Assembly (NCBI GenBank): GCA_946999045.1
Contig: CAMQBR010000001.1
Location: 33,324-97,323 of the forward strand
DNA length: 64,000 nt
Direction of reading: 5' to 3'
Source: an uncultured Prevotella sp.
Lineage (GTDB): Bacteria > Bacteroidota > Bacteroidia > Bacteroidales > Bacteroidaceae
The notes beneath the pieces are model-generated. The model was given only the letters and a program-made list of their open reading frames with translations. It was not told the DNA's origin and searched no databases. The first letter of the stretch is position 1. Each line of letters begins with the position of its first letter. Shown here one piece after another: positions 14,417 to 44,195 of this stretch. The position numbers and the translations under genes are program-made.

Positions 14417-14440
14417 GAATAAGGTAAATATACCCTATAA

Positions 14441-15442
14441 TTACTTGTTAGTTATCTTAAAATACTTCTCTAAGACTAACAGAGATATAAGGCGTTCACG
14501 ACGCTGATTCATAAATTGTGCTACAAATTGATGGGCATGTTCTATAATAGCTTCGGCATCTTTGGGATGTTCTATGTAATAATGTAGCTGTTGAGACAAA
14601 TCGGAAAAGTTGGGCTTAATAGCAATATAATGGTAATTAGGAATAAGTTTACCCTCCATAAACCATGTTTCATAGGTAGGAGGTGGCATCACTGCAACCG
14701 AATTGGACGACATAATCCACTTCAAATTACTGGCAACATCATTACCTTCTAACGCCATAATAAACTTATAATCTAAATGCTGGCGAATGCTTAACTTTGT
14801 TGTATACCACTCAGTAAACTGCTTATCCACTACTCCAGCATCCACTAAAGGATGCTGAAAATACTTTTGCATAAAGTATAAGCGATTTAATTTAAGGTTA
14901 TTTCCTGCTTTTTGTCCTATCTCTCCCCTAAAAATAACCATATTCTTTTTATCTCGAAATTTTTTTTTGTCATGCGTAAAAATAAAATGGCGCACACGAT
15001 CTAATTTCATTATCACAGAATTTTGATTATCTCCAGCAATGGGACGGCTCTTTACTATTGTTGGTAAAGTGGGGATAGTGATTACATCTCCAGCCTCTAC
15101 TATCCATTTGTTACATAGCGGAAAGGCTTTGGCATAGCGATAAGAATCAAGATAATATACCTTTGGGTGCATAATACGTTGCTCACAAAGCATGGTAGAC
15201 TGGATGTTAAATGCTGTATCATCTATATCTGTTTTATTAGATAATCTATTATAATAATTTACCCTTTCTTTAATATATGCTTTATCCTTTCGCTTGGTAA
15301 AAGCTCGTTTATCTCTCTGCCACAACCACTTTAATATAAAATGTGGTATATTTATTTGTATGTATGACACAAGATAATACGACCATTTAGCGTTCTTATC
15401 ACTTTTTAAAAAGTATTTTATTTGATACAGAAAGTTTTTCAC
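14441..15442 (-). CDS. Putative LPS-modifying glycosyltransferase (GT90/CAP10-like)
   Basis: 333 aa soluble protein in an LPS gene string; 4-bp overlap with the upstream GT2. Family assignment is from memory of CAP10-type proteins and is weak. Confidence 0.3.
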   Translation of the reverse strand: MKNFLYQIKYFLKSDKNAKWSYYLVSYIQINIPHFILKWLWQRDKRAFTKRKDKAYIKERVNYYNRLSNKTDIDDTAFNIQSTMLCEQRIMHPKVYYLDSYRYAKAFPLCNKWIVEAGDVITIPTLPTIVKSRPIAGDNQNSVIMKLDRVRHFIFTHDKKKFRDKKNMVIFRGEIGQKAGNNLKLNRLYFMQKYFQHPLVDAGVVDKQFTEWYTTKLSIRQHLDYKFIMALEGNDVASNLKWIMSSNSVAVMPPPTYETWFMEGKLIPNYHYIAIKPNFSDLSQQLHYYIEHPKDAEAIIEHAHQFVAQFMNQRRERLISLLVLEKYFKITNK

Positions 15443-16248
15443 TCGTATTGATATTTATCTAATCCATTGGTACACCATGATTTTTTTTCTCTCTGTGTAC
15501 GTTCTAATTCTTTGTAATTGCTTTTTGCATTCTCACGAGATGCTACTGAATGTAACAAATGGTATTCTACTCCACCAAATTTCAGACTACGTTTGTGCAC
15601 ACCAGCAAAATGCAATCTGTAAGCTAATTCGCTATCTTCGTATCCCCACTCTATAAAGTCTTCATTGAAACCATTTACCTTTATAAGATCCTTTCTCCAA
15701 TAAGCCATATTGCATCCACGAGCATGAGCTATATCTCGATCATACCTATCGGCTAAAAATTGACGAAGATAATGACAACGATATTTATTAAAAATATGTC
15801 CCAGAGATAAATCCCACAAAAATATTTTGAATTTTTGAGTCTTTAATATTTTTTCTGTAGTTTTCTTAGACAATAAAACTCTTGATCCACACACAAAACA
15901 ATTTGGTTGACAAATATCTAAATGATCACTAATAAAATAAGGAGATAGCACTACATCACCATCTATTTCAATGATATAATCGCCCTCCATTTCCGTAATG
16001 GCTTTATTAAGAATGATAGTTTTACGAAAACCTTTGTCCTCATGCCACACATGTTTGATGGGTACAGTACTTTCTTTTTTTAGTTTTTCTATCAGTTCTC
16101 GTGTGTCATTTTTTGAGCCATCATCCGCAATAGCTATCTCATAAGGTAGCACTGTTTGGGCAAAAATACTACGCAAACATAATGCTAATGCCTCTTTCCA
16201 ATTATAGGTAGAGACCAATATTGATACTTTTATTTGTGTCTTCTCCAT
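15439..16248 (-). CDS. Glycosyltransferase family 2 (LPS core-type)
   Basis: VSILVSTYNWKEALALCLRSIFAQT…IAIADDGSKNDT…EIDGD motifs. Confidence 0.75.
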   Translation of the reverse strand: MEKTQIKVSILVSTYNWKEALALCLRSIFAQTVLPYEIAIADDGSKNDTRELIEKLKKESTVPIKHVWHEDKGFRKTIILNKAITEMEGDYIIEIDGDVVLSPYFISDHLDICQPNCFVCGSRVLLSKKTTEKILKTQKFKIFLWDLSLGHIFNKYRCHYLRQFLADRYDRDIAHARGCNMAYWRKDLIKVNGFNEDFIEWGYEDSELAYRLHFAGVHKRSLKFGGVEYHLLHSVASRENAKSNYKELERTQREKKSWCTNGLDKYQYE

Positions 16249-16284
16249 TTACTTTTTTCTTGATTTCATAGCAGCAAATGCATA

Positions 16285-17445
16285 TTATCTACCTTGTTGC
16301 AATAATTGATTGTACACCTCTTCCACCTGTTCTGCAACATTTAAGTTTTCAAAACGTTGTACATATAGTTTGCTACGTTCTATCTTTTCAGCCCTATTGT
16401 CATTGCCTTTCAATATAGATATAATGGCTTGTGCCATAGCTTGTACATCATCTGGATGAACATACAGACTATCAGGACCGCCTGCTTCTTCTAAACAAGA
16501 ACCTGTGCAAGCCACTATGGGTAAACCACTCTGTATGGCTTCAATGATAGGAATACCAAAACCTTCATAGCGAGAGGGATAAACAAAGCATTCGGCTTGC
16601 TGATAAATGGCTGGTAATTCAGCATTACTCACACCATGAAAAATATGTATACGACTTTTCAGGGCATATGCTTTGGCATATTTTTCTATTTTATTTAGAT
16701 AAGGAGTAGCTCGACCTACTGCAACAAGTTCTATATCTGAAGGTAATTGTTGCAATGCTTTAACGGCTAATAGTAAGTTTTTACGCTCTTCTATTGAACC
16801 AACGTACAATATATAACGTTTTGGCAAATGATAAATAGCATCTACTCTCTGCTTTTCTTCATTGCTAACAAGCCGCTTAAAGTTCGTTCCACATGATTGA
16901 TAAATTACTTTTATTTTTTCTTCTGGATAATTAGAATATTCCAATATATCTTGTTTGGTACACTCACTAATAGCAATTATGCAATCGGCTTCTTTGCAAG
17001 TAGACAGGAATTTATGCTTATATAACCAAGCATCTATACAATGATAATATTCGGGATGACGAAGAAAGATAAGATCGTGTATGGTAACAACACTTTTTAT
17101 TCCACTTTCGTTGATGCCAACAGGTAATTCTCCCGATAGTCCATGATACACTTCTACCCCATCGTACAGCAGTTGTTTTACAATACCTCGATGTCTCCAA
17201 TAATCTTTTTGCCACCTAAATCGAAAGCCTTGTGGATAACAAAAATCTATATTCTCAGCCTCTCTTATCTGCTGTCTCAGTGCATCATTACCCTTATCAG
17301 GTGCATATAGTTGTAGTTTAAGATGCGCATTTACTTCTGATAGCGCATTTACAAGCGTTCTACCATAATTTCCCAATCCCGTATTGTTACTAACAATGCG
17401 CTTTGCATCAAAGCCAATAGTAGTTATACTTTTGGTATTTTCCAT
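16285..17445 (-). CDS. Glycosyltransferase family 4
   Basis: YPSRYEGFGIPIIEAIQSGLPIV (EX7E motif region). Confidence 0.8.
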   Translation of the reverse strand: MENTKSITTIGFDAKRIVSNNTGLGNYGRTLVNALSEVNAHLKLQLYAPDKGNDALRQQIREAENIDFCYPQGFRFRWQKDYWRHRGIVKQLLYDGVEVYHGLSGELPVGINESGIKSVVTIHDLIFLRHPEYYHCIDAWLYKHKFLSTCKEADCIIAISECTKQDILEYSNYPEEKIKVIYQSCGTNFKRLVSNEEKQRVDAIYHLPKRYILYVGSIEERKNLLLAVKALQQLPSDIELVAVGRATPYLNKIEKYAKAYALKSRIHIFHGVSNAELPAIYQQAECFVYPSRYEGFGIPIIEAIQSGLPIVACTGSCLEEAGGPDSLYVHPDDVQAMAQAIISILKGNDNRAEKIERSKLYVQRFENLNVAEQVEEVYNQLLQQGR

Positions 17446-17456
17446 TTATAAACAGG

Positions 17457-18437
17457 CTATTTTTGTTTTATCTTTTTATTTGTTTCCATGCTTTTGATTT
17501 GCTCTGAAAATCTTAAATTAAACTCTTCTCTTGTACGTTTCCAGCGATTATGACTCCATAACCATAAGGCAGGATCACGATGAATGGTTGCTTCTAACAA
17601 CTTAAAATATTGGTCTGTAATTTCCCATTCACTACATTTTTTTGGTTGAAGGGTTATAAGTTTTAACTCACATTTATAATATCCTCGCTTTATGCGATGC
17701 ATATCCCCATAAAAACAAGCCTCATCGGTTTTCTTTACAATACGCTCGGCACCTGTAAGTACAGGGGTATCATGATTTAAGAAGTTAACCCAATGGTGAA
17801 TATTGTGCCACAAAGGAACTTGATCGGCAATATATCCTACTACTACGGTTTTGCTTTGCTGTCTGAAACGCAATATCTTTCTTATGGATTCTTGCATGGG
17901 TATACATAAAGAATTATTGAGTTCTCGTACATCCTTAAACAACTTATCAAAATATTGATTTTCTAATGGATGATATAGCTGACAGCATTGGGTAGACGGT
18001 GTGAGCCAATAAGGCAACGAGGATACCCACTCCCAGTTGCAATAATGACCTAAATAGATAGCACACGACTGTCCACAACTCAATACTTCATTTATTTTTT
18101 CGATACCCACAAATCGCATTCTCTTTTTAAATTGCACTTCAGACATATTCATGAGCTTTATAGTTTCTACAATATAATCGCAAAACCAATGGTAAAACTC
18201 TTTCTCTATTTCCCTAATTTCCTTATTGCTTTTCTTTGGAAAACTGGTTGATAAGTTCTTAATAATAATAATATGACGATATTTTATAAAGTATACTAAA
18301 AGCAAATAGAGTATATCGGATAAACGGTATAACACCCATAAAGGTAGTAATGATAGTAAATACCAAATGGTATATACTAATATATATCCTATTTTCTGTA
18401 ATAACTTTTTCATTAAAATAATAAATGCATTCGGCAC
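17457..18437 (-). CDS. Lipid A late acyltransferase (LpxL/HtrB family)
   Basis: N-terminal TM anchor and LPLAT-type fold (…AIYLGHYCNWEW…). Sits within the LPS cluster. Confidence 0.6.
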   Translation of the reverse strand: MPNAFIILMKKLLQKIGYILVYTIWYLLSLLPLWVLYRLSDILYLLLVYFIKYRHIIIIKNLSTSFPKKSNKEIREIEKEFYHWFCDYIVETIKLMNMSEVQFKKRMRFVGIEKINEVLSCGQSCAIYLGHYCNWEWVSSLPYWLTPSTQCCQLYHPLENQYFDKLFKDVRELNNSLCIPMQESIRKILRFRQQSKTVVVGYIADQVPLWHNIHHWVNFLNHDTPVLTGAERIVKKTDEACFYGDMHRIKRGYYKCELKLITLQPKKCSEWEITDQYFKLLEATIHRDPALWLWSHNRWKRTREEFNLRFSEQIKSMETNKKIKQK

Positions 18438-18581
18438 AAAGTTAGCAAATTAGCCTTTATCTTGCAAGCATTTAAGGTTTTAGTTGTGAGTGTTTCGGCA
18501 GACAAAAACTGCAGACTGCAATATCTGTTCTCCCCACATAAAAAACTATGTCAGTTAACTCCCTATAACTCTCATCATACC

Positions 18582-20573
18582 TCATGGCAACATCTTATTA
18601 TTTACTATTCTGTACATATATTGGTAAATAATAGCTTTCAGCTCACGTTCCATTTTTACTTGCTGTTTTACTTTTCCTAAAAGGTTGTGTTTCATCAGTT
18701 TATCATCTAAACGATAAATAGCCTTAGTTTTTTTGCCATCAAATTGTAATACATAACCGTACTTACAATATTGGTAAATACCATTAAGATAATTCACAGC
18801 GTACGTCTCACCCATTGGAGTAGTCATCAGGTCGCAACCATAAGAGATAAAGGGTTTGTTATACCCCAATATGCTAAGTACGGTAGGTAATATATCTATT
18901 TGCTGAGCTATGCCCAGTTGCATACCTGGAGACACTTCACCTGAAGGGTCGAAGATAATGATAGGCGAACAAAAACCGCCAATATCTGTTTGGTATTGTT
19001 GGTGATCACTCATATTGGTATGGTCGCTTGTCATCACAAAAATAGTATTTTTGTACCATGGTTGCTTTTTAGCAGTTTCAAAGAACTTACCAATAGCCAT
19101 ATCGGTATAGCGTATACATTTGTGCATAACGATACCCTCTTCAGGAAAAACCTTTTTATATTTATCTGGAATGACATAAGGCGTATGACTGGTAACCGTA
19201 AAACAAGCCGTCATAAAAGGTTGCTTCATTTCACCTATCTTAGTTGCCCAGTACTGTAAAAACGGCTCATCCCATATACCCCAATGCCCATCAAAGTCGG
19301 CATCACCACCAAAACGTTTGTCCTCATCATAATCTTGCCTGCCGTAATAGTGCTGAAAACCAGTTTTATTGGCAAAAGCTAAAAATCCCATACTTCCCCT
19401 GTTAGCACCATGGAAGAAAGCTGTTTCATACCCTTCTTTTTCTAAAATACCAGCCATTCCTGTATAATTGTTCATGGAAGCTGGTGTTAAAACAAAGGGA
19501 GATATAAACATAGGGATGCCACACAATACAGATGGCATACCATCAATGCTCTTTCTGCCATTGCAAAAAGAATATTGATAAACTCTACTTTTAGCTATAA
19601 GTTTATCTACATTAGGTGTATATCCTTTGTATTTGCCACCGTCTAAATCTTTATTAAAAGCACCAATGTACTCTCGTCCAAAACTTTCAACAATAAGAAC
19701 TACTACATTTTTTTTACGAAATGGATGTGTAGGTTGCAGACAATGAACTGGTGAGAAAAACTTTTCGGCTTCCTTTAGATTAGAGAAATAGGTTGGAATT
19801 GTAAATACATCTTTACCAATGGTTCGCAAAAGAGCAAAAGGGGTATTTAATACCAAGGCACATTCGGTAGGTCGCTCAACATATTGATTGGCATTATTCA
19901 CCGTAATAGGTCGAATACCTGTACCCAAGCCGCCTCTGCATGCACCTATTATTAAAGGTGTAGTAAGCAATAATAATAACAGTTGCACCCCTACAAAGCT
20001 TAATTTACTCTTTATAGTAATATATTTTGTATAATGAGTACGAGGCATTACATAGAGCTTCCACATTAAAAAGATAACAAAAATAGCCAACAACAGCAAA
20101 TACCAATGTACTAAGAGTTCGCCCCAAATAACATCGGTCAAGTTAGTTTCATTACTAAATTCTCTAAATACACTGGTTGTAGTACGGCGAAGGGTATAAG
20201 GAAAATATACCGAATCGCATAAATTGATAATAAAAGCCAATGCATTAACTACTACAAACAACCATTTACAAAACAGATGATAGCCTTTGTGCTCTTTTAT
20301 CCACAAGGGAAAGAGCATAGCTACAATGTATAACATATTAGTATAAGCAATAGCAGATCTGTCAAATATGTATCCACCCCAATACATTGTGGCAAAATTA
20401 GACCACGTAAGATGTTCTGAGAAATAACTAAAATTCTCCAACAAAAATTCTGTTCGTGCAATAAAATACACTACAAATACCATGAACAAATTGATTATCA
20501 TAGCCACAAAGGGAGAAAGCATCTGTTTCAGTTCTTTATATTTTTCATTATCCATATCTTTTTCTATCTTCAT
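18582..20573 (-). CDS. LTA-synthase/sulfatase-family membrane protein (phosphoglycerol/phosphoethanolamine transferase-like)
   Basis: 663 aa. 5 N-terminal TM helices and a C-terminal alkaline-phosphatase-superfamily domain (…VMTSDHT…). Confidence 0.7.
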   Translation of the reverse strand: MKIEKDMDNEKYKELKQMLSPFVAMIINLFMVFVVYFIARTEFLLENFSYFSEHLTWSNFATMYWGGYIFDRSAIAYTNMLYIVAMLFPLWIKEHKGYHLFCKWLFVVVNALAFIINLCDSVYFPYTLRRTTTSVFREFSNETNLTDVIWGELLVHWYLLLLAIFVIFLMWKLYVMPRTHYTKYITIKSKLSFVGVQLLLLLLTTPLIIGACRGGLGTGIRPITVNNANQYVERPTECALVLNTPFALLRTIGKDVFTIPTYFSNLKEAEKFFSPVHCLQPTHPFRKKNVVVLIVESFGREYIGAFNKDLDGGKYKGYTPNVDKLIAKSRVYQYSFCNGRKSIDGMPSVLCGIPMFISPFVLTPASMNNYTGMAGILEKEGYETAFFHGANRGSMGFLAFANKTGFQHYYGRQDYDEDKRFGGDADFDGHWGIWDEPFLQYWATKIGEMKQPFMTACFTVTSHTPYVIPDKYKKVFPEEGIVMHKCIRYTDMAIGKFFETAKKQPWYKNTIFVMTSDHTNMSDHQQYQTDIGGFCSPIIIFDPSGEVSPGMQLGIAQQIDILPTVLSILGYNKPFISYGCDLMTTPMGETYAVNYLNGIYQYCKYGYVLQFDGKKTKAIYRLDDKLMKHNLLGKVKQQVKMERELKAIIYQYMYRIVNNKMLP

Positions 20574-20609
20574 ATATTTATACCTTTCACATCTTAACCT
20601 TTTATCATT

Positions 20610-22442
20610 TCAAGTTTCCTGCATATCGTGTAGTTTCTTGTAATATCCACTTTTTTTAATGAGTTCATCGTGTGTACCTCGCTCCACAATACGTCCCTCG
20701 TGCAATACACATATCTCATCAGCATATTTTATGGTAGACAATCGGTGTGCAATAGCCACCGTAGTACGAGTACTCATCAATCTTTCTAAGGCATTTTGTA
20801 CTAATCGTTCGCTTTCAGTATCAAGCGCACTGGTAGCCTCATCTAATATTAAAATAGGTGGATTTTTAAGAATAGCACGTGCAATAGATATACGCTGACG
20901 CTGTCCACCACTTAATTTGTTACCTCTATCTCCAATATTTGTATCAAACTGATGCTCAGATTCCATAATAAAATCATAAGCATTGGCAATGCGAGCTGCA
21001 CGTTCTACATCCTCTTTAGTGGCATAATCTACCCCAAAAGTTATATTGTTATAGAAGGTATCGTTAAAAAGAATAGCCTCTTGATTAACGTTTCCTATTA
21101 ATTGTCGCAAACTATGAATACCTAAGTTGCGCACATTGATACCATCAATAAATACTTCACCCTCTTGAACATCATAGTAACGAGGTATCAAATCTACCAA
21201 TGTAGATTTTCCACTACCACTCTGTCCTACCAAAGCAACAGTCTTTCCTTTAGGTATAACGAGGTTAATGTGGCGCAATACCCACTGATCGTTATACTTA
21301 AATGATACATTGCGAAACTCTATTTCATTTTTAAATTCTGGTATCTGTATAGGTTTTTCTACCTCCTTAATATTTATATTAGTATTTAATATCTTATCAA
21401 TACGCTCAATAGAAGCCAAACCTTTCATAATAGCATACCCCGCTTTAGATACTTCTTTTAGTGGATTAATTATACTATATAGCATTACAAGATAATAAAT
21501 AAAAGTAGAACCACTTAAAACCTGCTGATTAAGAACCAAAATACCACCTACCCATAGCACAATAACTATTATGAAAGTACCTAAAAATTCGCTCATAGGA
21601 TGTGCAAGTTGCTGGCGTATAGTTACCTCCAGCACTGTTTTTCTATATAGATTGTTAACCTTATAAAATCGTTTTATCATTTTACTTTCAGCACAAAACG
21701 CCTTGATAATACGCAAACCTCCTAAAGTTTCTTCTACTTGACTCATGGTATCGCTCCACAAACTTTGTGCTTTTACACTATTTTGCTTGAGCTTTCTGCC
21801 TACTAATCCCATCAACCAACCAAAGATGGGAACAAACAGAATGGTAAAAATAGTCAACTCCCATGAGATAATTAACAAGGTAATAAAATAGGTAATGATG
21901 AGGATAGGATTTTTAAACATCATATCTATTGATGACATGATAGAGTTTTCTATCTCTTGTACATCACCACTCATACGAGCAATAATATCACCTTTGCGTT
22001 CTTCAGAGAAGAATCCAAGCGACAAATATATTACCTTACTATATAGTTTATTGCGAATATCACATACAATACCCGTACGGATAGGCATAACCGATGCCGA
22101 AGAAAGAAAAAAAGAAACTGTTTTAAGAAAGGTCATAAACAACAAAAACAACCCTATAAGCAGTAAAGCCGTAGTTGTACCATAATCGGTTATGAGTTGT
22201 TGTACATAATAATTGGCATTATTTATCAATACAGTGGGCACGTCTTTCAGATTGTTGGGCCATGCCATTAACGTTGTAACTTGTTGTTTAGTAATCTTAA
22301 ACAATATGTTAAGGATAGGAATAATAGCCGCAAACGAAAAGATATTCAATATAGCTGTAAGTATATTGAACAAAACGGATAGGAACACATAACGCTTGTA
22401 TGGACCTACAAACCTTCGCAATATTTGTATAAATTGTTTCAT
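20610..22442 (-). CDS. ABC transporter ATP-binding/permease, MsbA-like lipid A/LPS flippase
   Basis: 6-TM exporter domain plus NBD with Walker A GQSGSGKST, signature LSGGQRQR and Walker B ILILDEATSALD. Confidence 0.85.
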   Translation of the reverse strand: MKQFIQILRRFVGPYKRYVFLSVLFNILTAILNIFSFAAIIPILNILFKITKQQVTTLMAWPNNLKDVPTVLINNANYYVQQLITDYGTTTALLLIGLFLLFMTFLKTVSFFLSSASVMPIRTGIVCDIRNKLYSKVIYLSLGFFSEERKGDIIARMSGDVQEIENSIMSSIDMMFKNPILIITYFITLLIISWELTIFTILFVPIFGWLMGLVGRKLKQNSVKAQSLWSDTMSQVEETLGGLRIIKAFCAESKMIKRFYKVNNLYRKTVLEVTIRQQLAHPMSEFLGTFIIVIVLWVGGILVLNQQVLSGSTFIYYLVMLYSIINPLKEVSKAGYAIMKGLASIERIDKILNTNINIKEVEKPIQIPEFKNEIEFRNVSFKYNDQWVLRHINLVIPKGKTVALVGQSGSGKSTLVDLIPRYYDVQEGEVFIDGINVRNLGIHSLRQLIGNVNQEAILFNDTFYNNITFGVDYATKEDVERAARIANAYDFIMESEHQFDTNIGDRGNKLSGGQRQRISIARAILKNPPILILDEATSALDTESERLVQNALERLMSTRTTVAIAHRLSTIKYADEICVLHEGRIVERGTHDELIKKSGYYKKLHDMQET

Positions 22443-22606
22443 CTTGTAATATCAAGTTCTCATCTACCAAACATCTATGCTAAAATAAGCAATAATAGGA
22501 TGATAATATTATTTTGCAAAGATAATTAATTTTGTTTGATTTCAAAAATTACTCTTTATTATGACTATCATAGCATAATCTGTGGTTAACTATCCAATTG
22601 TAATTA

Positions 22607-22719
22607 GGGTGTTTCTATCAATTAGCTTTGACAAATTGACCTCAAAAAGAGCCCACAAGATGACAAAACGTAAAAAGACTGACATAAAAACTTTACGGTG
22701 GTAATTTATAAAACCGCCC
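22607..22719 (-). mobile_element. MITE-like element copy 2 (family 1, internally deleted, 113 bp), TSD ATTA
   Basis: GGGTGTTTCTATCAATTAGCTTTGAC…CTTTACGGTGGTAATTTATAAAACCGCCC. Lacks the central palindrome. 98 bp upstream of manC. Confidence 0.7.
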
Positions 22720-22817
22720 ATTATAAATTAAAAATGGTATAATTTATTATAAAATAATTGGAAATATAGTTTTTAATATATATCTTCGTTCTTATATTAA
22801 CCATTCATATTATTATC

Positions 22818-23900
22818 ATGGTAGAAAACAACTATTGCATTATACTTGCAGGTGGAAAGGGTAAACGTTTGTGGCCCTGCAGCAGAGAGGAAAAACCAAA
22901 ACAATTTATCGACTTCTTTGGAACTAAACAAACCTTACTTCAACAAACATACAAAAGAATGTTAAAGGTAGTTCCTAAAGAAAATATTCTCATAAGTACT
23001 AATAAAACATACTTAAAATGGGTGAAAGAGCAATTACCATCGGTTTCAGAAGATAGCATATTAGCCGAACCTATACACCGAAACACAGCTCCAAGTGTAG
23101 CATGGGCTGCACATCGCATATTAAAATTTAATGCCAATGCCAATTTATTAGTAGCACCGTCCGATCAAATTATTTTTAATGAAGAGGCATTTATAAAAGA
23201 TATTCAGAAAGGATTTAGATTTGTTAAACAAAAAGAAGGATTGCTTACCTTAGGTATAAAACCTACCCGCCCCGAACCTGGATATGGATATATACAATTA
23301 GGTGAACCTTTAGGTAATGATTTGTATAGCGTACAATCATTTACCGAAAAACCAGAAAGATATTTTGCCACCATGTTTGTTAAAAGTGGAGAATTTTATT
23401 GGAACACAGGTATGTTTATATCAAACATTGCATTTTTATCACATTGTATTAATAAGTTTTTGCCGTTTGTATTGGGTAACCTTGATACAATGAACCCTCA
23501 TTGGACTATTGAAGAAGAAAATCAATTTATTAATGACAACTATCCTCTCTATCCTAATCTATCAGTTGATTACGGTGTACTAGAAAAATCAGAACACGTA
23601 TACGTAATGAAATGTAGCTTTGGTTGGGCAGATATTGGTACATGGCATAGCATTTACGAGGCTATGCAGAAAAGTGAAAATGATAATGTAGTAATAGATA
23701 GTGATGTTATTTTAGAAGAAAGTCATAATAATGTAATTAAACTTCCTAAAGGTAAACTTGGCATCATTAACGGACTCGATGGATATATCATTGCCGAACA
23801 TGGTAACGTACTGCTTATTTGTAAAAAAGAAGATTCATCCGCATTAGTTAGAAAATATGTAAACAAAGCTCAGATAAAAAAAGGAATTGATTTTATATAA
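22818..23900 (+). CDS. manC: Mannose-1-phosphate guanylyltransferase
   Basis: IILAGGKGKRLWPCSREEKPKQF nucleotidyltransferase N-terminus. 360 aa with no PMI domain. Confidence 0.8.
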   Translation: MVENNYCIILAGGKGKRLWPCSREEKPKQFIDFFGTKQTLLQQTYKRMLKVVPKENILISTNKTYLKWVKEQLPSVSEDSILAEPIHRNTAPSVAWAAHRILKFNANANLLVAPSDQIIFNEEAFIKDIQKGFRFVKQKEGLLTLGIKPTRPEPGYGYIQLGEPLGNDLYSVQSFTEKPERYFATMFVKSGEFYWNTGMFISNIAFLSHCINKFLPFVLGNLDTMNPHWTIEEENQFINDNYPLYPNLSVDYGVLEKSEHVYVMKCSFGWADIGTWHSIYEAMQKSENDNVVIDSDVILEESHNNVIKLPKGKLGIINGLDGYIIAEHGNVLLICKKEDSSALVRKYVNKAQIKKGIDFI

Positions 23901-23903
23901 TAA

Positions 23904-24089
23904 GGCAGGTTCTATAAATTATCACCATATATAGTTAGTAAATTTTACGAAATACGTTTTGTTTCCTTTTGGCTTCTTTTTATAGAAAATAGGCTACAAA
24001 TCAGATAAACTTAATTGTATTCGGTCTACACTTTTTTCGATTCAAAAATAAATTAAAAAATCTAACAAGGCTAATTTATAGAACCAACC
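23904..24089 (+). mobile_element. MITE-like element copy 3 (divergent interior, same TIR type), TSD ATAA
   Basis: GGCAGGTTCTATAAATTATCACC…AAGGCTAATTTATAGAACCAACC. Begins 4 bp after the manC stop. Confidence 0.55.
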
Positions 24090-24214
24090 ATAACATCTAA
24101 AAAAAAACTTGTACATATTTTTAACACAGATAAAACATAATCACACTAAACATTAGGTTGCATTTTTTATCTGTGGTTAGGTAATTTTGAAAAACTACAC
24201 TCCCACTTATTTAT

Positions 24215-24534
24215 TTATCAACAAAAAGTGTAGATAACTATGTTTATAACCTCTGTATAACTCACAATTTACTAACACTACCTTAAATTAACCAAACAAG
24301 AAGTAGATATCCACATAGTTATCACAGCTATTTACCTATAATATCCACAGTTTTTCAACGAAAAAAAATATCAACTTATTAACAATACCCGTATAACTCG
24401 CTCTTTGTTGATAACTATTATAAGTAACAGATACACAACAAAAAGATATTATTCCAATAGGTGTATAATAGAAAACATAAATTTAATAACTAAATAGAGA
24501 AATATTTAGATAAAAATTTATCAACATATCCACA
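24215..24534. promoter_or_regulatory. Cluster of DnaA-box-like 9-mers in AT-rich gene-free region (candidate oriC / DnaA-binding locus)
   Basis: TTATCAACA (24215), TTATCTACA rc (24229), ATATCCACA (24307), TTATCACAG (24319), ATATCCACA (24341), GTTATCAAC rc (24407), TTATCAACA (24518), ATATCCACA (24526). Six are within 1 mismatch of TTATCCACA in 320 bp. Confidence 0.35.
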
Positions 24535-24750
24535 CTATATCATCCCTCTATTGTTTTATCTCTTTTAAATTTTAAAAAGAGTAAATATATAAATAGAGTG
24601 TTGAAAAGAAGAAGAAGAATAATATTGGACATACACTTCTATTTATTGAATTTTTTTTAAGAAATAGTAGGTATTATGTTGCAACTGCTAACATTAATGA
24701 GATTACTTTTAAGTGAGCCACTCCATTTTATAAGGATACCTACCTATCAA

Positions 24751-24765
24751 ATTATAGAACCGCCC
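24751..24765. repeat. Solo MITE family-1 terminus
   Basis: ATTATAGAACCGCCC. Confidence 0.35.
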
Positions 24766-24866
24766 TATGTAAAGAATGATAATAGATATATTTTTATTAG
24801 TTTCTTCAAAAAAAATATTCCTAAAAAATATATATACTTAGATAAATATATTTATATTTGTATAAA

Positions 24867-25058
24867 GGGCGGTTCTATAGATTAGCTTTGACAGATTGTG
24901 AGACTATTTTTGAGGTCAATTTGTTTGTAAGCGAAGGAGTATAGCGAGCTATACTCCTGAACGAACAAGCAAATTGAACCAAAAAGAGTCCACAAGATGA
25001 TAAAACGTAAATAGACTGGCATAAAAAAACTTTACGGTGGTAATTTATAGAACCGCCC
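24867..25058 (-). mobile_element. MITE-like element copy 4 (family 1, 192 bp), TSD TAAA
   Basis: Reverse orientation. The ACCACCGTAAAG end lies 34 bp upstream of the 25092 ATG. Flanked by TAAA. Confidence 0.8.
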
Positions 25059-25091
25059 TAAAATAATTTCAACTCATTTATTTATTAGTTT

Positions 25092-26255
25092 ATGAAATAT
25101 ATATATAGTAAACTTCAAACTGTTATGTTAGAGAAAAATATTCTCTTTATTCTTTATTTTTTGATTAATTTACTATTCATTATAAAATATGGCTCACGAG
25201 TAACTAACATTCCTATTCTTTTTATTGTTATCATAAGTTACTTTTTTATTGTATATATAACTTTGAAGATATGCCAACGAATAAAAAATGTTAATAGTTT
25301 ATGTTTATTATTTTTTGTTTGTATATTTTTATTTTTATGGATATTAGGGCAATATAGTATAGATCCTATGAGTATAAAAGTAGATAGGTGGTCAGCTATT
25401 CATAATTTTATAAATTATTTTTTAGATGGTAAATATCCCTATTTAGCTCAAACTCATTTAGGAGGTTATGGTTCTCCATTTCCTATTTGGCAAATATTTC
25501 ATATTCCGTTTTATTTATTAGGGAATGTAGGATTGTCTATTTTTGCTATTTTTTCTTATTTTATTTATGTACAAAAAAGAATTTTAGGTAATCAATACGC
25601 ATTAATTGTTTTATTTCTTTTTGTTCTTTCACCTGCTTTTTTATATGAAATTTTGGTAAGAAGTGATTTAGTAACAAATTTTCTTCTATTGAGCTCTTTT
25701 CTACAAATAGTTCTATATAAAGGTAAAAATTTACAGAACTCTTTTTATAGTATTGCTATTTTATGTGGATTATTTTTAAGTACTCGCTTAAGTATAGCGA
25801 TAGCTTGTATTATCTTCTTTTTTCCTTCGTATTTACAATTATCTATAAAAAGAAAGATATTGTTTCCTCTATTGGTGATAATTATTTTTTCTTTTACATT
25901 TCTACCATTTATTATTTGGAATATGGATGAATTATTTTTCTTTAAATATAATCCTTTTATATTACAAACAAGACAAGGTAGTATACTTGATGTTCTATTT
26001 ATTTGCTTAATAATATGTTATATAGTTATTAGATTAAAGGGTGATTATTTAAAAACTTTCTGTAATATAGCATATGCCTATATTTTGTTTATAGCTTTTG
26101 TAGCTATCCATCTTATAATTTCAGTTCAAAGTTATGATGTATTCTTAACGTCTTTATTTGATATAACCTATTTTGATATGTCGTTACCATTTTTAATATG
26201 TTCTTTGGGTATATATTTAGTAAAGAGAAGAATTAATAGCAAAAATATAAAATAA
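25092..26255 (+). CDS. Polytopic membrane protein, GT-C-like (DUF2029-like), very low GC
   Basis: 387 aa, at least 10 TM helices. Motif …THLGGYGSPFPIWQ… is analogous to the 11403-12593 protein. Strongly AT-biased codon usage. Confidence 0.4.
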   Translation: MKYIYSKLQTVMLEKNILFILYFLINLLFIIKYGSRVTNIPILFIVIISYFFIVYITLKICQRIKNVNSLCLLFFVCIFLFLWILGQYSIDPMSIKVDRWSAIHNFINYFLDGKYPYLAQTHLGGYGSPFPIWQIFHIPFYLLGNVGLSIFAIFSYFIYVQKRILGNQYALIVLFLFVLSPAFLYEILVRSDLVTNFLLLSSFLQIVLYKGKNLQNSFYSIAILCGLFLSTRLSIAIACIIFFFPSYLQLSIKRKILFPLLVIIIFSFTFLPFIIWNMDELFFFKYNPFILQTRQGSILDVLFICLIICYIVIRLKGDYLKTFCNIAYAYILFIAFVAIHLIISVQSYDVFLTSLFDITYFDMSLPFLICSLGIYLVKRRINSKNIK

Positions 26256-26283
26256 GCCCTGTATTTTATACTGGTATTATCTT

Positions 26284-28290
26284 CTACCTAATGATTGCTA
26301 TTTTACATATAGTTCCTTTATCTCCATTATTGTCAGCAGTTTGTACCATATATATGCCTGAAGCTACACGATTACCATTTAGGTCTTTTCCATCCCATAT
26401 AAATATACCTCCATTACTTCTTCCTGTTGAAACTAATATTCCGTTACTGGTAACTATTTTAATATCGGAGTTGAATGATAACCCTGTAATTGTTATTAGT
26501 CCATTATAATTAGGATCAACAGGATTAGGATAGGCATATACTGTCTCTTTCGTCATTTCTTTTTGTGCTAAATTTGCATCTGATAAGTATGAGCAGAGTC
26601 CTTTATCTGTACCAAAAAATACTTCTCCTGTTGTATTATTTATTGCAATAGATTCTATATTATTTGAAAGAAGCGGACTATTAGCTTTAGTAAAATGTTT
26701 AATCTCTTTTGTATAATCAGAACTTATAAGATATACTCCATTACCTAATGTTCCGAACCACAAACGATTAGCACCATCAATAGCCATAGAATAGATATGA
26801 ACTCCGTTCAATAAATAATCTGCTAAGTTTGTTCCATCGTTCCTATTAATCTTAATTTGTTCTAATTTTACATTATCATTTTGAGAAATTTGAGAGGCTT
26901 TTAATAAAAGAGGACCAGTGTTTGTTCCTATCCATATATTATGTTCTAAGTCTTCTGCAATACATTCAACTCTATTTACTTCTATTACATCATTATCTGT
27001 ATTGATAAATTTTTTGTATGATTTTAATAATTTTATTGATGGTTGATAACAGAAAAAAGAAGGAATAACCCAGTGTCGGTTAACAAACCACATCATAGAA
27101 CGGCTATCGAACATTAGTCCTTGCATAGCTCCTAAACTTTGCTTATTTTTATTTAATAATGCTGTTGTATGGTGCGATATCCATTTGCCTTCTTTAGTAA
27201 GTTCTATTATGGATTGTGAAGAAGCCATACTGTTAAGTAGCCATAAATTTCCGTCTTTGTCAAATTTGATAGATTCTATGACGGTATATATATTATTATT
27301 GCCTAATGCTGATTGTAGCGGACTATTATCAATATTATAGTGTTTTACTAATTTTTTATTTTTAAATTCATAAAGTCCTGTTCTTCCACTGACAAAAATA
27401 TGTGTATTATCGTTTGGATCTACATCAATTGATAGATTGTCTATATTTTGATGTCCTATTTTTTTTTCTAAATTGTCATCATAGATAATCCATTTATTAT
27501 TTGTGTCTAATATTTGCGCTGTTCCTAAACGTGCATCATCACCATCTGGCCCATATCCTCCACTTGTTGAATACAGTATATTGTTAATAACCTTAATACT
27601 CCCAAAGTAATTGTATTTTGGCCCTTCTGGGCGATATTTTTCGGCTTCTTTCTTTAGCTTTTCATCTAAAGGTTGTTTTTTTGGAGTAAATGCTCCTACA
27701 TATTTCCAGTTGTTTTTATCTAATAAATTACTGCTGAGTGCAGCTGAATATTTGCCATGAGATGATGACTCGGCAATAATTTTTCCATTGTTTATGTGCG
27801 ACCAGTTAACCTTAAACCCTAACTGGTAGGTGTCGCTAATCTCTGCTTTTCGCACATTGAGCTTAATGATACCAAAGTTAGTGGATAAATAAGCATAAAT
27901 ACCATCAATATCAACAGCATAAACAGTTTTCTCTTGGTTGATATCCTTGGTATAAAAGTCGGATATATTAACTATGTTGCCATGAAGATTTAACAAATCA
28001 ATATTACCATTTTTGTAGACGATAACCAGGCGTTTTACCGCCTTGTTATAAGCAATATGCGCAATATCCACATCGTTCAGTACAGTTGTTTTGTCGTATG
28101 TTTGTACGCTATTGTCGTTTTTATGATATGAAAAAAGTGCGCCCGATGCCAATACAAATATTGTGTTGCCAGCAGGTTGTATTTCTGTTATCTCGTAATA
28201 AGAAGGATACATTTTCCATGTTTCCACTTGTGCTATACCCGATAAATAACATACCATATATATTAATAAGGTGAGAAATACTTTTTTCAT
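26284..28290 (-). CDS. T9SS C-terminal-domain protein with two-component-regulator-propeller-type repeats
   Basis: Signal peptide MKKVFLTLLIYMVCYLSGIAQ, repeated beta-propeller blades, and a C-terminal Por-secretion sorting domain (…YPNPVDPNYNGLITI…ASGIYMVQTADNNGDKGTICKIAIIR). Confidence 0.6.
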   Translation of the reverse strand: MKKVFLTLLIYMVCYLSGIAQVETWKMYPSYYEITEIQPAGNTIFVLASGALFSYHKNDNSVQTYDKTTVLNDVDIAHIAYNKAVKRLVIVYKNGNIDLLNLHGNIVNISDFYTKDINQEKTVYAVDIDGIYAYLSTNFGIIKLNVRKAEISDTYQLGFKVNWSHINNGKIIAESSSHGKYSAALSSNLLDKNNWKYVGAFTPKKQPLDEKLKKEAEKYRPEGPKYNYFGSIKVINNILYSTSGGYGPDGDDARLGTAQILDTNNKWIIYDDNLEKKIGHQNIDNLSIDVDPNDNTHIFVSGRTGLYEFKNKKLVKHYNIDNSPLQSALGNNNIYTVIESIKFDKDGNLWLLNSMASSQSIIELTKEGKWISHHTTALLNKNKQSLGAMQGLMFDSRSMMWFVNRHWVIPSFFCYQPSIKLLKSYKKFINTDNDVIEVNRVECIAEDLEHNIWIGTNTGPLLLKASQISQNDNVKLEQIKINRNDGTNLADYLLNGVHIYSMAIDGANRLWFGTLGNGVYLISSDYTKEIKHFTKANSPLLSNNIESIAINNTTGEVFFGTDKGLCSYLSDANLAQKEMTKETVYAYPNPVDPNYNGLITITGLSFNSDIKIVTSNGILVSTGRSNGGIFIWDGKDLNGNRVASGIYMVQTADNNGDKGTICKIAIIR

Positions 28291-28305
28291 ATCATACCAC
28301 AACGT

Positions 28306-28896
28306 TTAATGCTTGGAAGATTTTTGCTTAAAGAACGCAGCCAATTTAGCTACTGCTTGTGCCCGATGTGATATTTTGTTCTTTATATCCATGCCTAATT
28401 GTGCAAAACTCTCTTTATATCCATCGGGTATAAAGAGAGGGTCGTAGCCAAACCCCTCATTTCCATGCTTCTCTTCGCTGATTGTTCCGTTGATTTTGCC
28501 TTCAAATAAATAAGTTTCTTTACCTTGTAATAAAGCAATTACAGTGCGGAAACAAGCCTTTCTGTTTTTTTTCCCATGCAGTTCACGCAAAAGTTTTTGC
28601 ATATTAGCTTCGCTGTCGTGGTCTTTTCCGTCAGCATATCGTGCACTATGTACTCCTGGTCTGTTGTTTAAAGCTTCTACTTCCAAGCCTGTATCATCGG
28701 CAAAACAATCTAAATGATAGTGTACTTTTACGTAGTTAGCCTTTTGAAGAGCGTTTTCTTTAAGTGTAGTCCCTGTCTCTGGAATATCTTCATGACAGCC
28801 AATATCCTGTAAAGAAACAATTTCTATTTGTTCTCCCAAGATATTTCTTATTTCCTGCAACTTATTTTTGTTGTTCGTTGCAAATACTATCTTCAT
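28306..28896 (-). CDS. rdgB: Non-canonical purine NTP pyrophosphatase (RdgB/HAM1)
   Basis: [21 protein letters not shown] canonical start; …[27 protein letters not shown]. Confidence 0.85.
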
Positions 28897-29839
28897 TTTT
28901 TTTTAACTTTTCTATGTGTTTTTGTTTTACCTTTACTTTTATTTGGTCAAATCCTTCACCGTAAACACCGATAACAGAACTCTGGCTAACAAAGGCATTA
29001 GGGTCGGTTAGCTTAATTAAACGAAAAATGAGTTGGCTCTCGCTTTTCCGAGCCAATAAGCATATAACCTTTATATCTTGTCCTGTATACCAGCCATGTC
29101 CGTCAAGGATAGTTAGTCCATGGTCGGTTTCTTTAGATAAAACTCTGGCTATATTTTCATATTTACGTGAGTAAATCATAAACTGTACCGACTGGCGTTG
29201 CCTTGCATATACTAAGTCAAGCATAGAGCACTCAATGAAAATAGTACAGTAGCCAAATACAACTTTATGAGCGCGTTCTGCCATTTCGCCTAATTGTGGA
29301 AAGAAGAAACAGCTACTTACAATGCACACATCAACTAATATCAAAACTTGTCCGAGTGATAAATCTTTGTATTTGTTAACACAAGCAGCAATAATATCCG
29401 AACCTCCAGTGCTACCGTTATTCAAGAATACTATTGCTAATGATGAGCCAGTAATACAACATCCTATTACCATAGACATAAAGTCTTGTCCCTCGCCCAA
29501 TACTTTTACAAAGTTTCCGTGCGCATCCACAGGCATTAAGTCTTGCGCTACCTTCAACATAAAGTACAGGGCAAAGATAGCATAGATAGTCTTCATCATA
29601 AATTTGAATCCCAAGATTTTAAGAGCCACGATTAACAAACATATGTTGATAATCATGTACGTATTTTCAATCTTAAAACCTGTGGCATAATATACTATAG
29701 CCGACATACCTGTAATGCCACCTGTTACTATCTCGTATGGCAGTAAGAAGATAGTAAATGCCATGGTATAAAGTAAAAGCCCAAATGTGATAAATACGTA
29801 GTCTTTTACTTCAGAGTAAATAAGTTCTTTGTGCTTCAT
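28862..29839 (-). CDS. YitT-family membrane protein (DUF161 + DUF2179)
   Basis: [39 protein letters not shown] is typical YitT. Confidence 0.7.
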
Positions 29840-32688
29840 TATTTAAGTACTATGTTTATAATTTTTTTAGGTACTACAATGGACTTTACAATAGTTTTCC
29901 CAGCTATATATTTCTTTGTGCGTGGGTCTGCCATTACCTTTTTCTGTATTTTCTCTTTAGTGTCATCTATGCTGAATACCATTTGGAAGCGAGCTTTTCC
30001 GTTAAACGAAACGGTCATCTGAATATCGCTTTCTTTTAGATATTCTTCATTGTATACAGGCCATTTAGCATTGTAAACCGAAGTTATTTCGCCCAATATA
30101 TGCCACAATTCTTCACAGATATGAGGAGCAAATGAAGCCAAAAGTACAACTACATTTTTTAATAATTCTTTATTAGTACACTTGCTTTGTGCCAATTCGT
30201 TAATGCAAATCATAAAGGCAGATACGGCTGTGTTGTATGAGAAATGTTCTATATCGGTAGTTACCTTCTTGATAAGTTTGTGTACAGACTTTAGCTGTGC
30301 AGCAGTAGGTTCTGTATCATCTGGTAAGAAACGGTTGGTTCTGTTTTCATAGAATAGTCCCCAAAGTTTCTTTAGAAAACGGTAACAACCGTCAATACCA
30401 TTGGTATCCCATGGTTTACTTGCTTCTAACGGACCTAAAAACATTTCATATAAGCGAAGTGTGTCGGCACCATATTGCTCAATAACCATATCAGGATTAA
30501 CTACATTGAACATTGATTTAGACATTTTTTCAATAGCCCAACCGCAAATATACTTGCCGTCTTCCAATATAAATTCGGCATTCTTATATTCAGGTCGCCA
30601 TGCTCTAAAGGCATCAAGGTCTAACACATCACCATGAACAATATTTACATCTACGTGAATAGGTGTAGTTTTGTATTGCTTTTTTAGTCCCAATGAAACA
30701 AAGATAGGTGCTGTTGAATGGTCTTCTGTATTGATACGATAAACAAAATTGCTTCGTCCTTGTATCATTCCTTGGTTAACCAACTTTTCAAATGGTTCTT
30801 CTTTGTACGAATATCCGTAATCATGTAAGAACTTATTCCAAAATCTTGAATAAATCAAGTGTCCAGTTGCATGTTCTGTTCCACCAACATACAGGTCTAC
30901 ATTTTGCCAATAAGCTGCTACATCTTTATCAACCAATGCCTTATCATTATGCGGATCCATATACCGAAGATAGTAAGCTGAACTACCAGCAAAGCCTGGC
31001 ATGGTGTTTAATTCCAATGGGAAGATAGTGGTATTGTTGATAAGCGACTTATCTACTACCTCTTTTTTTTCAGTATTCCATGCCCATTTCTTAGCACGCC
31101 CCAATGGAGGTTCACCTGTTTTAGTTGGTTCATATTTGTCTATCTCTGGCAATTGTAGTGGCAAACACTCTTCTGGAATCATATACGGAATATTACCTTT
31201 ATAATATACAGGGAAGGGTTCGCCCCAATAACGTTGGCGAGAGAAGGTAGCATCACGCAGACGATAGTTAATCTTTACATGACCTAAGCCTTGCTCGGTA
31301 ATATATTTTTTTGTGGCAGCAATTGCCTCTTTTACAGATAATCCATTGAGAGAAAATGTTGTGTGCTTTCCATTAACTGGACTATTTGTTACAATTCCTT
31401 CCTTGGCGTCATAACTTTCTTCGCTTACATCAGCTCCCTCTATCAGTGGAATAATAGGTAAGTTAAAGTGTTTAGCAAAAGCATAATCTCTGCTGTCGTG
31501 TGCAGGAACAGCCATGATAGCTCCTGTTCCGTAGCCTGCTAATACATAATCGCTTACATAGATAGGTATTTTATCACCAGTTACTGGATTAACAGCATAG
31601 CTACCCGTAAATACTCCCGATACTTTTCTGTCAGAAATACGCTCACGTTCAGTACGTTTCTTAGTTGCATCTACATAAGCTTTTACCTCGTTTGTTTGCT
31701 CTGGAGTAGTAACTTGAGCTACATAATCGCTCTCTGGAGCCAAAACCATGAAGGTAACACCAAACATAGTATCAGCACGTGTGGTAAAAATAGTAAGTTC
31801 TACATCAGAATTAGCCAGCTTAAATTTAACTTCAGCACCTTCCGAACGGCCAATCCAGTTGCGTTGTGTCTCCTTTAAAGAGTCAGTCCATTGTACAGTA
31901 TCTAATCCGTCTAACAAGCGTTGAGCGTATGCCGATACACGCAAACACCACTGGCGCATTTTCTTTTGTACAACAGGGTAGCCACCACGTTCGCTCACAC
32001 CGTCAACTACTTCATCGTTTGCCAATACAGTACCCAAGCCAGCACACCAGTTAACCATTGTTTCGCCCAAATAAGCAATGCGATAATTCATTAATGTTTT
32101 TTGTTGTTGCTCATCGCTCATGGTTTTCCATTCATCTGCTGTAAGCGATAGTTCTTCGCTTTGGGCTACGTTGATATCTTTAGAACCTTTACTCTCAAAA
32201 TGCTCTATCAGTTTTGTTATAGGTTGTGCTTTCTGTAAAGTGTTGTCGTAATACGAGTTAAACATTTTTATAAATGCCCACTGTGTCCAGTGATAATAAA
32301 TAGGGTCGCAGGTTCTTATCTCTCTGTCCCAGTCGAATGAGAATCCTATTTTATCTAACTGTTTGCGATAATGCTTGATGTTGGCTTCTGTAGTTATAGC
32401 AGGGTGTTGCCCTGTCTGAATAGCATATTGTTCGGCAGGTAGTCCGTAAGCATCATACCCCATAGGATTTAATACATTAAATCCTTGTTGATGTTTATAT
32501 CTTGCGTAAATATCGCTGGCAATATATCCCAAAGGATGTCCAACGTGCAAGCCTGCTCCCGATGGATAAGGGAACATATTGAGTACATAAAATTTTTCTT
32601 TATTTTTGTCTTCTACTACCTTGTAGATTTTGTTGTTTACCCACTCGTTTTGCCATTTTTTTTCAATGTCTTTGAAATTGTATTCCAT
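29839..32688 (-). CDS. leuS: Leucyl-tRNA synthetase
   Basis: HVGHPLGY (HIGH), KMSKS, CP1 editing domain. 949 aa. Confidence 0.95.
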
Positions 32689-32897
32689 ACGATATTTAAT
32701 ATTTATGTCTGTACAATAATTCTATGTAAATTATAGTTAAAAGCAAAGTTACGAAAAAAAGTGTAATATAGATTGAATAAAAAATGATTTTTATGAAAAT
32801 GTGCAAACTTTATATTTTACTTTGAATTTTATGATTAAACAGCGTAAGGAGTTAAGCCTTTTAGTTATGTACTTTAAACATTGAGCTTTATGATTAT

Positions 32898-33089
32898 GGG
32901 TGTTCTATAAATTATACCACCGTAAAGTTTTTATGTCGGTCTTTTTACGTTTTGTTATCTTGTGGGCTCTTTTGGGTTCAATTTGCTTGTTCGTTCAGTA
33001 GTATAGCTCGCTATACTTTTTCACTCACAAACAAATTGATCCCAAAAAATACTCTCACAATTTGTCAAAGCTAATTTATAGAACCGCCC
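32898..33089 (+). mobile_element. MITE-like element copy 5 (family 1, 192 bp), TSD TTAT
   Basis: GGGTGTTCTATAAATTATACCACCGTAAAG…CTAATTTATAGAACCGCCC. 209 bp upstream of the leuS start. Confidence 0.8.
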
Positions 33090-33255
33090 TTATACATTTT
33101 ACTAAAAAGCTAACAACTTGTAAAGTTATATATAAAAAAATGTTGTTATATTTTTTCATTTTTATTTATAATCAATGAGTTATACTATTATTAAAAACAT
33201 TTTTATGTAGTCATATATTATTATTTTTTTTTCTATTTTATGGGACGCAACAATC

Positions 33256-33343
33256 TCATTGAGTTTGCAGCATAAAACCATTGAGTTTGCCCGTCAAAAT
33301 CATTGAGATTGTGCTTCAAAACCATTGAGATTGTATTTTTCAC
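33256..33343 (+). repeat. Four-unit direct repeat with exact 22-bp phasing (core CATTGAGWTTG)
   Basis: Units begin at 33256, 33278, 33300 and 33322: CATTGAGTTTGCAGCATAAAAC / CATTGAGTTTGCCCGTCAAAAT / CATTGAGATTGTGCTTCAAAAC / CATTGAGATTGTATTTTTCAC. Confidence 0.7.
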
Positions 33344-33369
33344 CTCAAGCTCTTATAGATGTAAAAAAT

Positions 33370-35049: not shown

Positions 35050-35071
35050 CTTCTTTTCTCTATCTTTTATA

Positions 35072-35265: not shown

Positions 35266-35315
35266 TACATTGTTTTTTGAGTTTGGCACTTATATGTGAG
35301 TTATTGGTACTTAAC

Positions 35316-38882: not shown

Positions 38883-38903
38883 TAGTTTTGATGATTTGTT
38901 TAA

Positions 38904-44174: not shown

Positions 44175-44195
44175 GATTGCTTACTTGTTATACAT

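Follow-up and report, generated by a model that had tools for sequence, protein, structure and literature searches.

A cluster of seven DnaA boxes at positions 24215-24534 of a 64-kb stretch of Prevotella DNA (the whole stretch analysed, hereafter the window) very probably marks oriC, the origin of chromosome replication, in a low-G+C bacterium of the Prevotella/Hoylesella type (Bacteroidota). Two lines of evidence support the oriC reading: the boxes are conserved in relatives, and a change in base composition that does not depend on gene strand falls at the site.

DnaA-box cluster in the longest gap of the window

Scanning both strands of the window for DnaA boxes, defined as 9-mers with at most one mismatch to TTATCCACA, gave seven boxes within 24215-24534, and a looser set with at most two mismatches comprised 13 boxes in 24200-24540. 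No perfect TTATCCACA is present in the cluster, as all seven boxes carry a mismatch. The boxes and box-like sites are as follows.

24215-24223, plus strand: DnaA box TTATCAACA, one mismatch; outside the stretch aligned with relatives and convergent with the 24229 box
24229-24237, minus strand: DnaA box TTATCTACA, one mismatch; aligns with the terminal TTATCAACA box of relatives
24241-24249, minus strand: weak DnaA box TTATAAACA, two mismatches; the aligned site in relatives is a perfect TTATCCACA
24307-24315, plus strand: DnaA box ATATCCACA, one mismatch; shared in the alignment with contig L089 only
24317-24325, plus-strand side, after the 24307 box: box-like 9-mer TTATCACAG, a one-base deletion relative to the consensus
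24341-24349, plus strand: DnaA box ATATCCACA, one mismatch; aligns with the conserved GGTGGAAAA of relatives, GTGGA being invariant
24406-24414, minus strand: DnaA box TTATCAACA, one mismatch; a perfect TTATCCACA in five of five relatives
24518-24534, plus strand: tandem boxes TTATCAACA (24518) and ATATCCACA (24526), overlapping by one base and directed at the AT-rich tract

The sequence-only reading had located the same cluster with six boxes of one mismatch or fewer and eight of two or fewer; the cluster stands, and the counts become seven and 13. Two tandem pairs had also been described, of which 24518/24526 is indeed tandem, whereas the boxes of 24215/24229 are inverted, converging on each other 5 bp apart. 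The background rate given there, one match per 4-5 kb, was too low, as window-wide shuffles yield about one per 2.8 kb. These miscounts and the error in the background rate leave the claim of a cluster unchanged.

The cluster is genuine, with seven boxes against about 0.2 by chance. In dinucleotide-preserving shuffles of the region itself, the expectation for boxes with at most one mismatch ranged from 0.15 (for 341 bp) up to 0.26 (for 660 bp), and seven boxes were never reached in 5000 shuffles, the maximum being three. Boxes with at most two mismatches number 13-15 in the region against 1.7-3.3 expected from shuffles. The cluster is the densest 400-bp stretch for boxes in the 64 kb, all others holding three or fewer, and the remaining intergenic DNA of the window (8.4 kb) contains two boxes with at most one mismatch. 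In total, the window holds 34 boxes of this class, compared with 22.8 expected per 64 kb from window-wide shuffles, an excess that is essentially the 24215-24534 cluster.

The gap around the cluster (23901-25091) is 1191 bp long with 26% G+C. As claimed previously, it is the longest stretch of the window lacking an ORF of at least 150 aa, and it is bracketed by two MITE copies, which we place at ~23905-24088 and ~24866-25060. Its repeat-related parts are the following.

~23905-24088, no strand assigned: diverged copy of the MITE-like repeat, its terminal inverted repeats being GGTTCTATAAATTA; left limit, outside the origin
24748-24770, no strand assigned: solo end of the MITE-like repeat
24771-24865, no strand assigned: extremely AT-rich spacer between repeat ends
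~24866-25060, no strand assigned: MITE-like repeat in the opposite orientation to the other copies, containing a 38-nt palindrome; right limit

About 660 bp of unique DNA (25% G+C) is left between the repeats. The presumed functional core is ~380 bp (24224-24603), and the rest of the 1.2-kb gap consists of the two repeats, the solo end and the AT-rich spacer. A 69-aa ORF at 24676-24885 overlaps repeat and AT-rich DNA, gave no Pfam match even at E=1 and is unlikely to be a gene. A search of the 64 kb against Rfam, on both strands, found no family at gathering score (no tRNA, riboswitch or other known RNA). There was likewise no indication of a plasmid-type origin, as the 1.2-kb region had no match in a plasmid collection searched in distant mode.

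The MITE-like repeat is ~185-195 bp long, has GGGCGGTTCTATAAATTA as its terminal inverted repeats, contains a palindrome and is distinct from the PINSR repeat of P. intermedia, which has no terminal inverted repeats. It occurs throughout the window (4503-4687, 6321, 22611-22715, 23908-24085, 24748, 24871-25054, 32901-33085, 35076-35261, 38908-39091, 42596, 51200 and 54859). The window contains 19 matches to the repeat terminus against 1.6 expected, all intergenic, and about one element per 7 kb. Several metagenome contigs of the same species (L072-L076) break off within PorZ, shortly after it or within orf387, 0.8-3.7 kb short of the repeats.

The left neighbour of the gap is a nucleotidyl-transferase (NTP-transferase) gene ending at 23900, whose best homologues, from Hoylesella and Prevotella, have at most 79% identity, which places the source among the low-G+C Prevotellaceae. 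It belongs to a contiguous lipid A/LPS-related cluster (11403-23900) directly left of the origin, which comprises GT87, a sulfatase-family enzyme, GT90, GT2, GT4, an LpxL-like acyltransferase, a second sulfatase-family enzyme, an MsbA-like ABC exporter and the nucleotidyl-transferase. To the right lie orf387, PorZ (a type IX secretion component), Ham1, YitT, LeuS and an RluB-like gene, followed by GH2, KdtA, GltX and Gmk. The gene orf387 (25092-26255, 387 aa) has ~25% G+C, far below that of the neighbouring genes; its product has no Pfam match even at E=1, and the exact protein is not on record, whereas those encoded next to it are. One possibility is that orf387 encodes a variable membrane protein belonging to the neighbouring LPS/glycan cluster. 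The flanking genes are chromosomal and of types usual in Bacteroidota. The site is set among core chromosomal genes (priA, leuS, gltX, gmk, murA, dxr and mutS), and neither dnaA, dnaN nor any other classical origin-linked gene was found among the 38 ORFs scanned in the window. Further to the right, a gene for a SusC-like TonB-dependent receptor (52859-54515) is shortened to a 400-aa ORF; comparison with L107:524-3703 revealed that ~1.7 kb of the receptor gene, present in metagenome contigs of the same species (L107:1768-3454), is absent from the window, and in another contig, L109, the SusC-like receptor gene is broken in two.

The species of the window is common in metagenome assemblies. In three independent metagenome contigs that belong to it (L069-L071), the region is 99% identical and retains all seven boxes without change. 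The sequence is therefore not an assembly artefact, although these contigs are too close to the window to be informative on constraint.

A homologous element in distant Prevotella

Six rumen Prevotella contigs (L089, L093, L095, L097, L100 and L102) contain a box-rich intergenic region of 365-430 bp. It lies next to nadA, 3.8-8 kb past the PorZ gene of a LeuS-YitT-Ham1-PorZ block that is conserved across Prevotella-like metagenome contigs, and in L093, L095 and L097 it occupies the space between divergent nadA and a SpoU/TrmH-type methyltransferase gene (trmH). PorZ of the window has 43-48% identity to that of these rumen relatives (contigs aligned). Counting boxes of one mismatch or fewer, the regions of the relatives contain three to five, and several of these are perfect.

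An nhmmer profile was built from the regions of five relatives, with the window excluded, and searched against both strands of the 64 kb. The sole significant match was 24603-24224 on the minus strand (profile positions 6-373, E=4.4e-6). A MAFFT alignment, for which the reverse strand of 24100-24700 was used, agreed with nhmmer and matched the regions of the relatives along their whole length. The orientation of the element relative to PorZ is the same in the window and in the relatives. Its main parts are listed here.

24224-24603, minus strand: candidate oriC core; nearly all of it is homologous to the box-rich nadA-trmH region of rumen relatives
24360-24382, minus strand: most conserved block, 23 nt, TTAATAAGTTGATATTTTTTTTC in the window and TTAATAAGTTTATATCTTTTTTC in relatives
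24538-24545, minus strand: motif GGATGATA (plus strand TATCATCC), between the tandem boxes and the AT-rich tract
24547-24610, no strand assigned: AT-rich tract, the favoured candidate for the DNA unwinding element (DUE); adjoins the tandem boxes and matches the AT-rich tract at the nadA end of the element in relatives

The boxes are retained in this homologous element of distant Prevotella, so that the check named beforehand, conservation of boxes in relatives, came out in favour of the oriC reading. Eight of the nine positions of the 24406 box are invariant in the alignment, the exception being the sixth, and the boxes at 24229 and 24241 are the counterpart of a tandem TTATCCACAcacTTATCAACA in relatives. 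Relatives have a perfect TTATCCACA where the window has variants with one or two mismatches; the tandem pair 24518/24526 shows the reverse, aligning with a weaker box-like GTTGATA[TA]G in relatives. The window also has an extra box at 24215 and the pair 24307/24317, mostly missing in relatives.

The 23-nt block is identical at 21 of 23 positions with L097, L093 and L089 (BLAST), forms invariant columns of the alignment and has a high nhmmer posterior. Within it, plus-strand positions 24369-24381 (TATCAACTTATTA) fit what we take to be the E. coli IHF consensus, WATCAANNNNTTR, and it may be speculated that a HU/IHF-like protein of Bacteroidota acts at the block. In GGATGATA, six of the eight positions (G.TGATA) are invariant columns and the nhmmer posterior is maximal; in all sequences the AT-rich end follows. 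The regions of the relatives also contain an almost invariant stretch, GGTGCAAAATTAATAAGTTTATATCTTTTTTC...GGTGGAAAAGT, which is more conserved there than the DnaA boxes and of which the window keeps only part (L097:15850-15920, L093:6280-6350, L102:20540-20610 and L089:14510-14580). Its reverse strand contains what is presumably a -7 motif of the Bacteroidetes type, TAATTTTG.

The flanks of the element differ, being nadA and trmH in relatives and the NTP-transferase gene and orf387 with the MITEs in the window, where the MITEs separate the element from both neighbouring genes. Given that the flanking genes differ, the element is an autonomous cis element, conserved for itself and not as the promoter of one gene.

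Five further contigs with the same PorZ block (L079, L084, L085, L096 and L099) had no box cluster within 10 kb, and none was present at 68 loci around NTP-transferase homologues. The location of the cluster is thus not universally conserved, since some relatives with the PorZ block and the NTP-transferase loci are without it. The 68 loci are nevertheless silent on conservation of the element itself, because the left flank is non-syntenic. In the closest genomes (L001-L012 and L056; Hoylesella timonensis and uncultured Prevotella), the nucleotidyl-transferase gene directly precedes GH2, whereas in the window the two are separated by 11.4 kb (23901-35315) containing the origin, orf387, PorZ, Ham1, YitT, LeuS and the RluB-like gene. 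This block splits genes that are adjacent in the closest genomes, which indicates a rearrangement beside the origin.

Third-position GC skew and T/A skew change sign at the cluster

Raw GC skew over the 64 kb shows no switch at the cluster, the cumulative minimum lying near 32 kb, and an all-position skew model favours 29.5-31 kb. Gene strand dominates both of these measures, and neither resolves the site. At third codon positions (GC3), skew read on the plus strand is negative in nine of nine minus-strand genes left of the site (-0.07 to -0.26) and positive in 10 of the first 11 minus-strand genes to its right (+0.05 to +0.32), and for the two plus-strand genes bordering the gap the values are -0.20 and +0.20. 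When each gene was modelled with a strand term and a side term and 32 gene boundaries were compared, the best GC3 change point was 23900/25092 (residual permutation, 49/5000). The same boundary was chosen by T/A skew and by third-position T/A skew.

Minus-strand genes left and right of the site differ strongly (Mann-Whitney p=0.0002). Plus-strand genes alone show no significant difference between the two sides (p=0.49), and those at 5-11 kb have positive GC3 skew. Contigs of the same species extend the view by 10 kb past each end of the window, where all five genes on the left are negative and all five on the right positive, three of the latter on the minus strand. In the relatives, genes on the PorZ side of the cluster are mostly negative and those on the far side positive (12/13 versus 2/2 in L102). 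A change from negative to positive skew is the polarity of an origin, not of a terminus. The local switch, seen over 64-84 kb and mainly in minus-strand genes, is good but not conclusive support for an origin. To the right of the site, genes spanning about 19 kb (26284-45071) are on the minus strand, head-on to a rightward fork.

An AT-rich tract beside the tandem boxes

Past the tandem boxes, the plus strand reads TATCATCC, a G-rich triplet and then the AT-rich tract 24547-24610. Duplex stability at 24550-24599 is -49.5 kcal per 50 bp, compared with a window mean of -61.6, and a second weak-duplex spot is found at 24470-24519. The least stable 50-mer of the window (24810-24859, -45.2 kcal per 50 bp) falls in the spacer 24771-24865, which has no counterpart in the compact element of relatives. 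We therefore favour 24547-24610 as the candidate unwinding site, with the spacer as the alternative.

The tandem boxes read as TGTGGATA-like on a strand that continues 5' into AT-rich DNA, an arrangement that we take to resemble the R1-DUE end of E. coli oriC. On the minus strand, box 24526-24534 is followed by a 13-nt spacer and then by GAT AAC AAA, read 3' to 5'. A published rule for finding basal unwinding systems calls for three or more NAN trios no further than 16 nt from a box, GAT being the commonest first trio (PMC8287927). Under the box/trio geometry of E. coli oriC, GAT AAC AAA would be compatible with this rule, which is loose in A-rich DNA and easily satisfied by chance.

Discussion

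Three other explanations of the cluster were weighed against an origin. The one that survives best, although we consider it unlikely, is a DnaA-titration or regulatory locus of the E. coli datA/DARS type that does not fire and would buffer or recycle DnaA, the true origin being elsewhere. Like E. coli datA, the locus is a DnaA-box cluster in non-coding DNA away from dnaA, and a box cluster and its conservation would suit any functional DnaA-binding locus equally well; moreover, no dnaA or dnaN lies nearby and the switch is missing from raw GC skew. However, datA, which needs IHF-dependent hydrolysis of DnaA-ATP, is not known to coincide with a skew switch or to have an unwinding element, whereas the cluster in the window has both a skew switch and a conserved AT-rich tract. 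GC3 and T/A skew change there with the polarity of an origin, a polarity shared by the relatives, and the AT-rich tract and box-adjacent motif would be superfluous at a titration site. To our knowledge, datA is known only in enterobacteria, and datA and DARS have been characterised solely in E. coli and its close relatives. The datA-like interpretation, which the sequence-only reading had offered beside oriC, is thus disfavoured, because a titration site needs neither coincidence with a skew switch nor a box-adjacent AT-rich tract. Nor does the absence of dnaA nearby speak against an origin, since according to DoriC an oriC far from dnaA is common in Bacteroidetes (PMC4755523).

Less probable still is a DnaA-controlled promoter, or the array of some other regulator, serving the neighbouring NTP-transferase gene or orf387. 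The boxes are intergenic and upstream of orf387, and in relatives the element lies between divergent nadA and trmH, with the -7-like TAATTTTG on the minus strand. However, the element has been conserved despite entirely different flanking genes, MITE copies intervene in the window, and the window has not retained the -7-like motif seen in the relatives. We know of no DnaA-regulated promoter that approaches seven to nine boxes over 320 bp. An equally remote explanation, that the boxes are chance words in AT-rich, repeat-ridden DNA or the relic of an origin that died after rearrangement, might draw on the 25-26% G+C, the MITE invasion, the mismatch in all seven boxes and the 11.4-kb block lying between genes that are adjacent in Hoylesella-like genomes, but chance is excluded by the composition-matched shuffles (0/5000 reach the observed count) together with the full-length homology to relatives, in which the conserved box positions argue for selection, and at a dead origin the skew switch would have decayed or shifted.

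An origin at this locus therefore remains our preferred explanation. What doubt remains stems from the local 64-kb view, the weak raw skew, the 19 kb of head-on genes and the basis of the reading in sequence alone. Beyond the 64 kb (84 kb with the extensions) there could be a stronger cluster, or the skew minimum of the whole genome.

How the boxes, the conserved motif and the AT-rich tract may work together can be outlined from the general bacterial model. DnaA-ATP would bind at the locus, filling about seven to nine boxes over ~320 bp (24215-24534), and the tandem boxes 24518-24534 would nucleate a DnaA oligomer extending towards GGATGATA and the tract 24547-24610. The oligomer would open this AT-rich tract, the presumed unwinding site, the helicase would be loaded at the opened tract, and with firing of the origin forks would depart both ways.

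The architecture shares features with origins known or predicted in other bacteria. The closest match is the nadA-trmH element of rumen Prevotella, with ~370 homologous positions, the orientation to PorZ, the order of boxes, the 23-nt block, GGATGATA, the AT-rich end and the skew polarity in common; it differs in being bounded by nadA and trmH, both absent from the window. As in E. coli oriC and B. subtilis, the boxes proximal to the DUE are directed at an AT-rich tract, and the central site like the IHF consensus is reminiscent of E. coli oriC. The GAT AAC AAA that follows a 13-nt spacer, on the strand where the box reads TGTGGATAT, offers at most weak evidence of likeness to the basal unwinding system of B. 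subtilis. Unlike these two origins, however, the window has neither 13-mer repeats nor GATC clusters, and the origin is linked neither to dnaA (the B. subtilis type) nor to gidA/mioC (the E. coli type). In the literature searched, we found no experimentally dissected Bacteroidota origin, only computational predictions. The oriC of P. intermedia predicted by Ori-Finder is ~480 bp long, with multiple boxes of the E. coli type and a clear GC-skew transition, and lies far from dnaA (PMC4755523). By description, the predictions for P. intermedia OMA14 and strain 17 and the DoriC/Ori-Finder predictions for Bacteroidota resemble the locus in the window in combining a compact intergenic region of multiple boxes (one mismatch allowed) with a skew transition and a position far from dnaA (PMC4755523). 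The locus differs from the P. intermedia oriC in that its skew is local (64-84 kb, third codon positions), not genome-wide, and in being bracketed by MITE-like repeats.

Finding an oriC is routine in itself, as programs of the Ori-Finder type make such calls for every complete genome. The position of oriC fixes the replication map, that is, the replichores, which strand is leading and which lagging, and the point of reference when growth rates are estimated from metagenomic coverage, and a fragment carrying it would be usable for building vectors that replicate in this genus, for which genetic tools are scarce. We propose, tentatively and with low confidence, that Prevotellaceae origins have a lineage-specific architecture in which the most conserved parts are the 23-nt block TTAATAAGTTnATATnTTTTTTC (24360-24382) and GGATGATA rather than the DnaA boxes, and that the origin may have been relocated through repeats. 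The block and GGATGATA could be the site of a Bacteroidota origin factor, such as a HU/IHF-like bender or a helicase-loading partner; alternatively, they could be a divergent element for ssDNA capture that replaces canonical DnaA-trios. It is also possible that the origin module moved out of an ancestral nadA-trmH setting into its present MITE-bracketed one by repeat-mediated relocation. The comparison with rumen Prevotella provides a first sketch of a conserved Prevotellaceae origin, consisting of ordered boxes, the 23-nt block, GGATGATA and an AT-rich end, which could guide the experimental dissection of origins in Bacteroidota.
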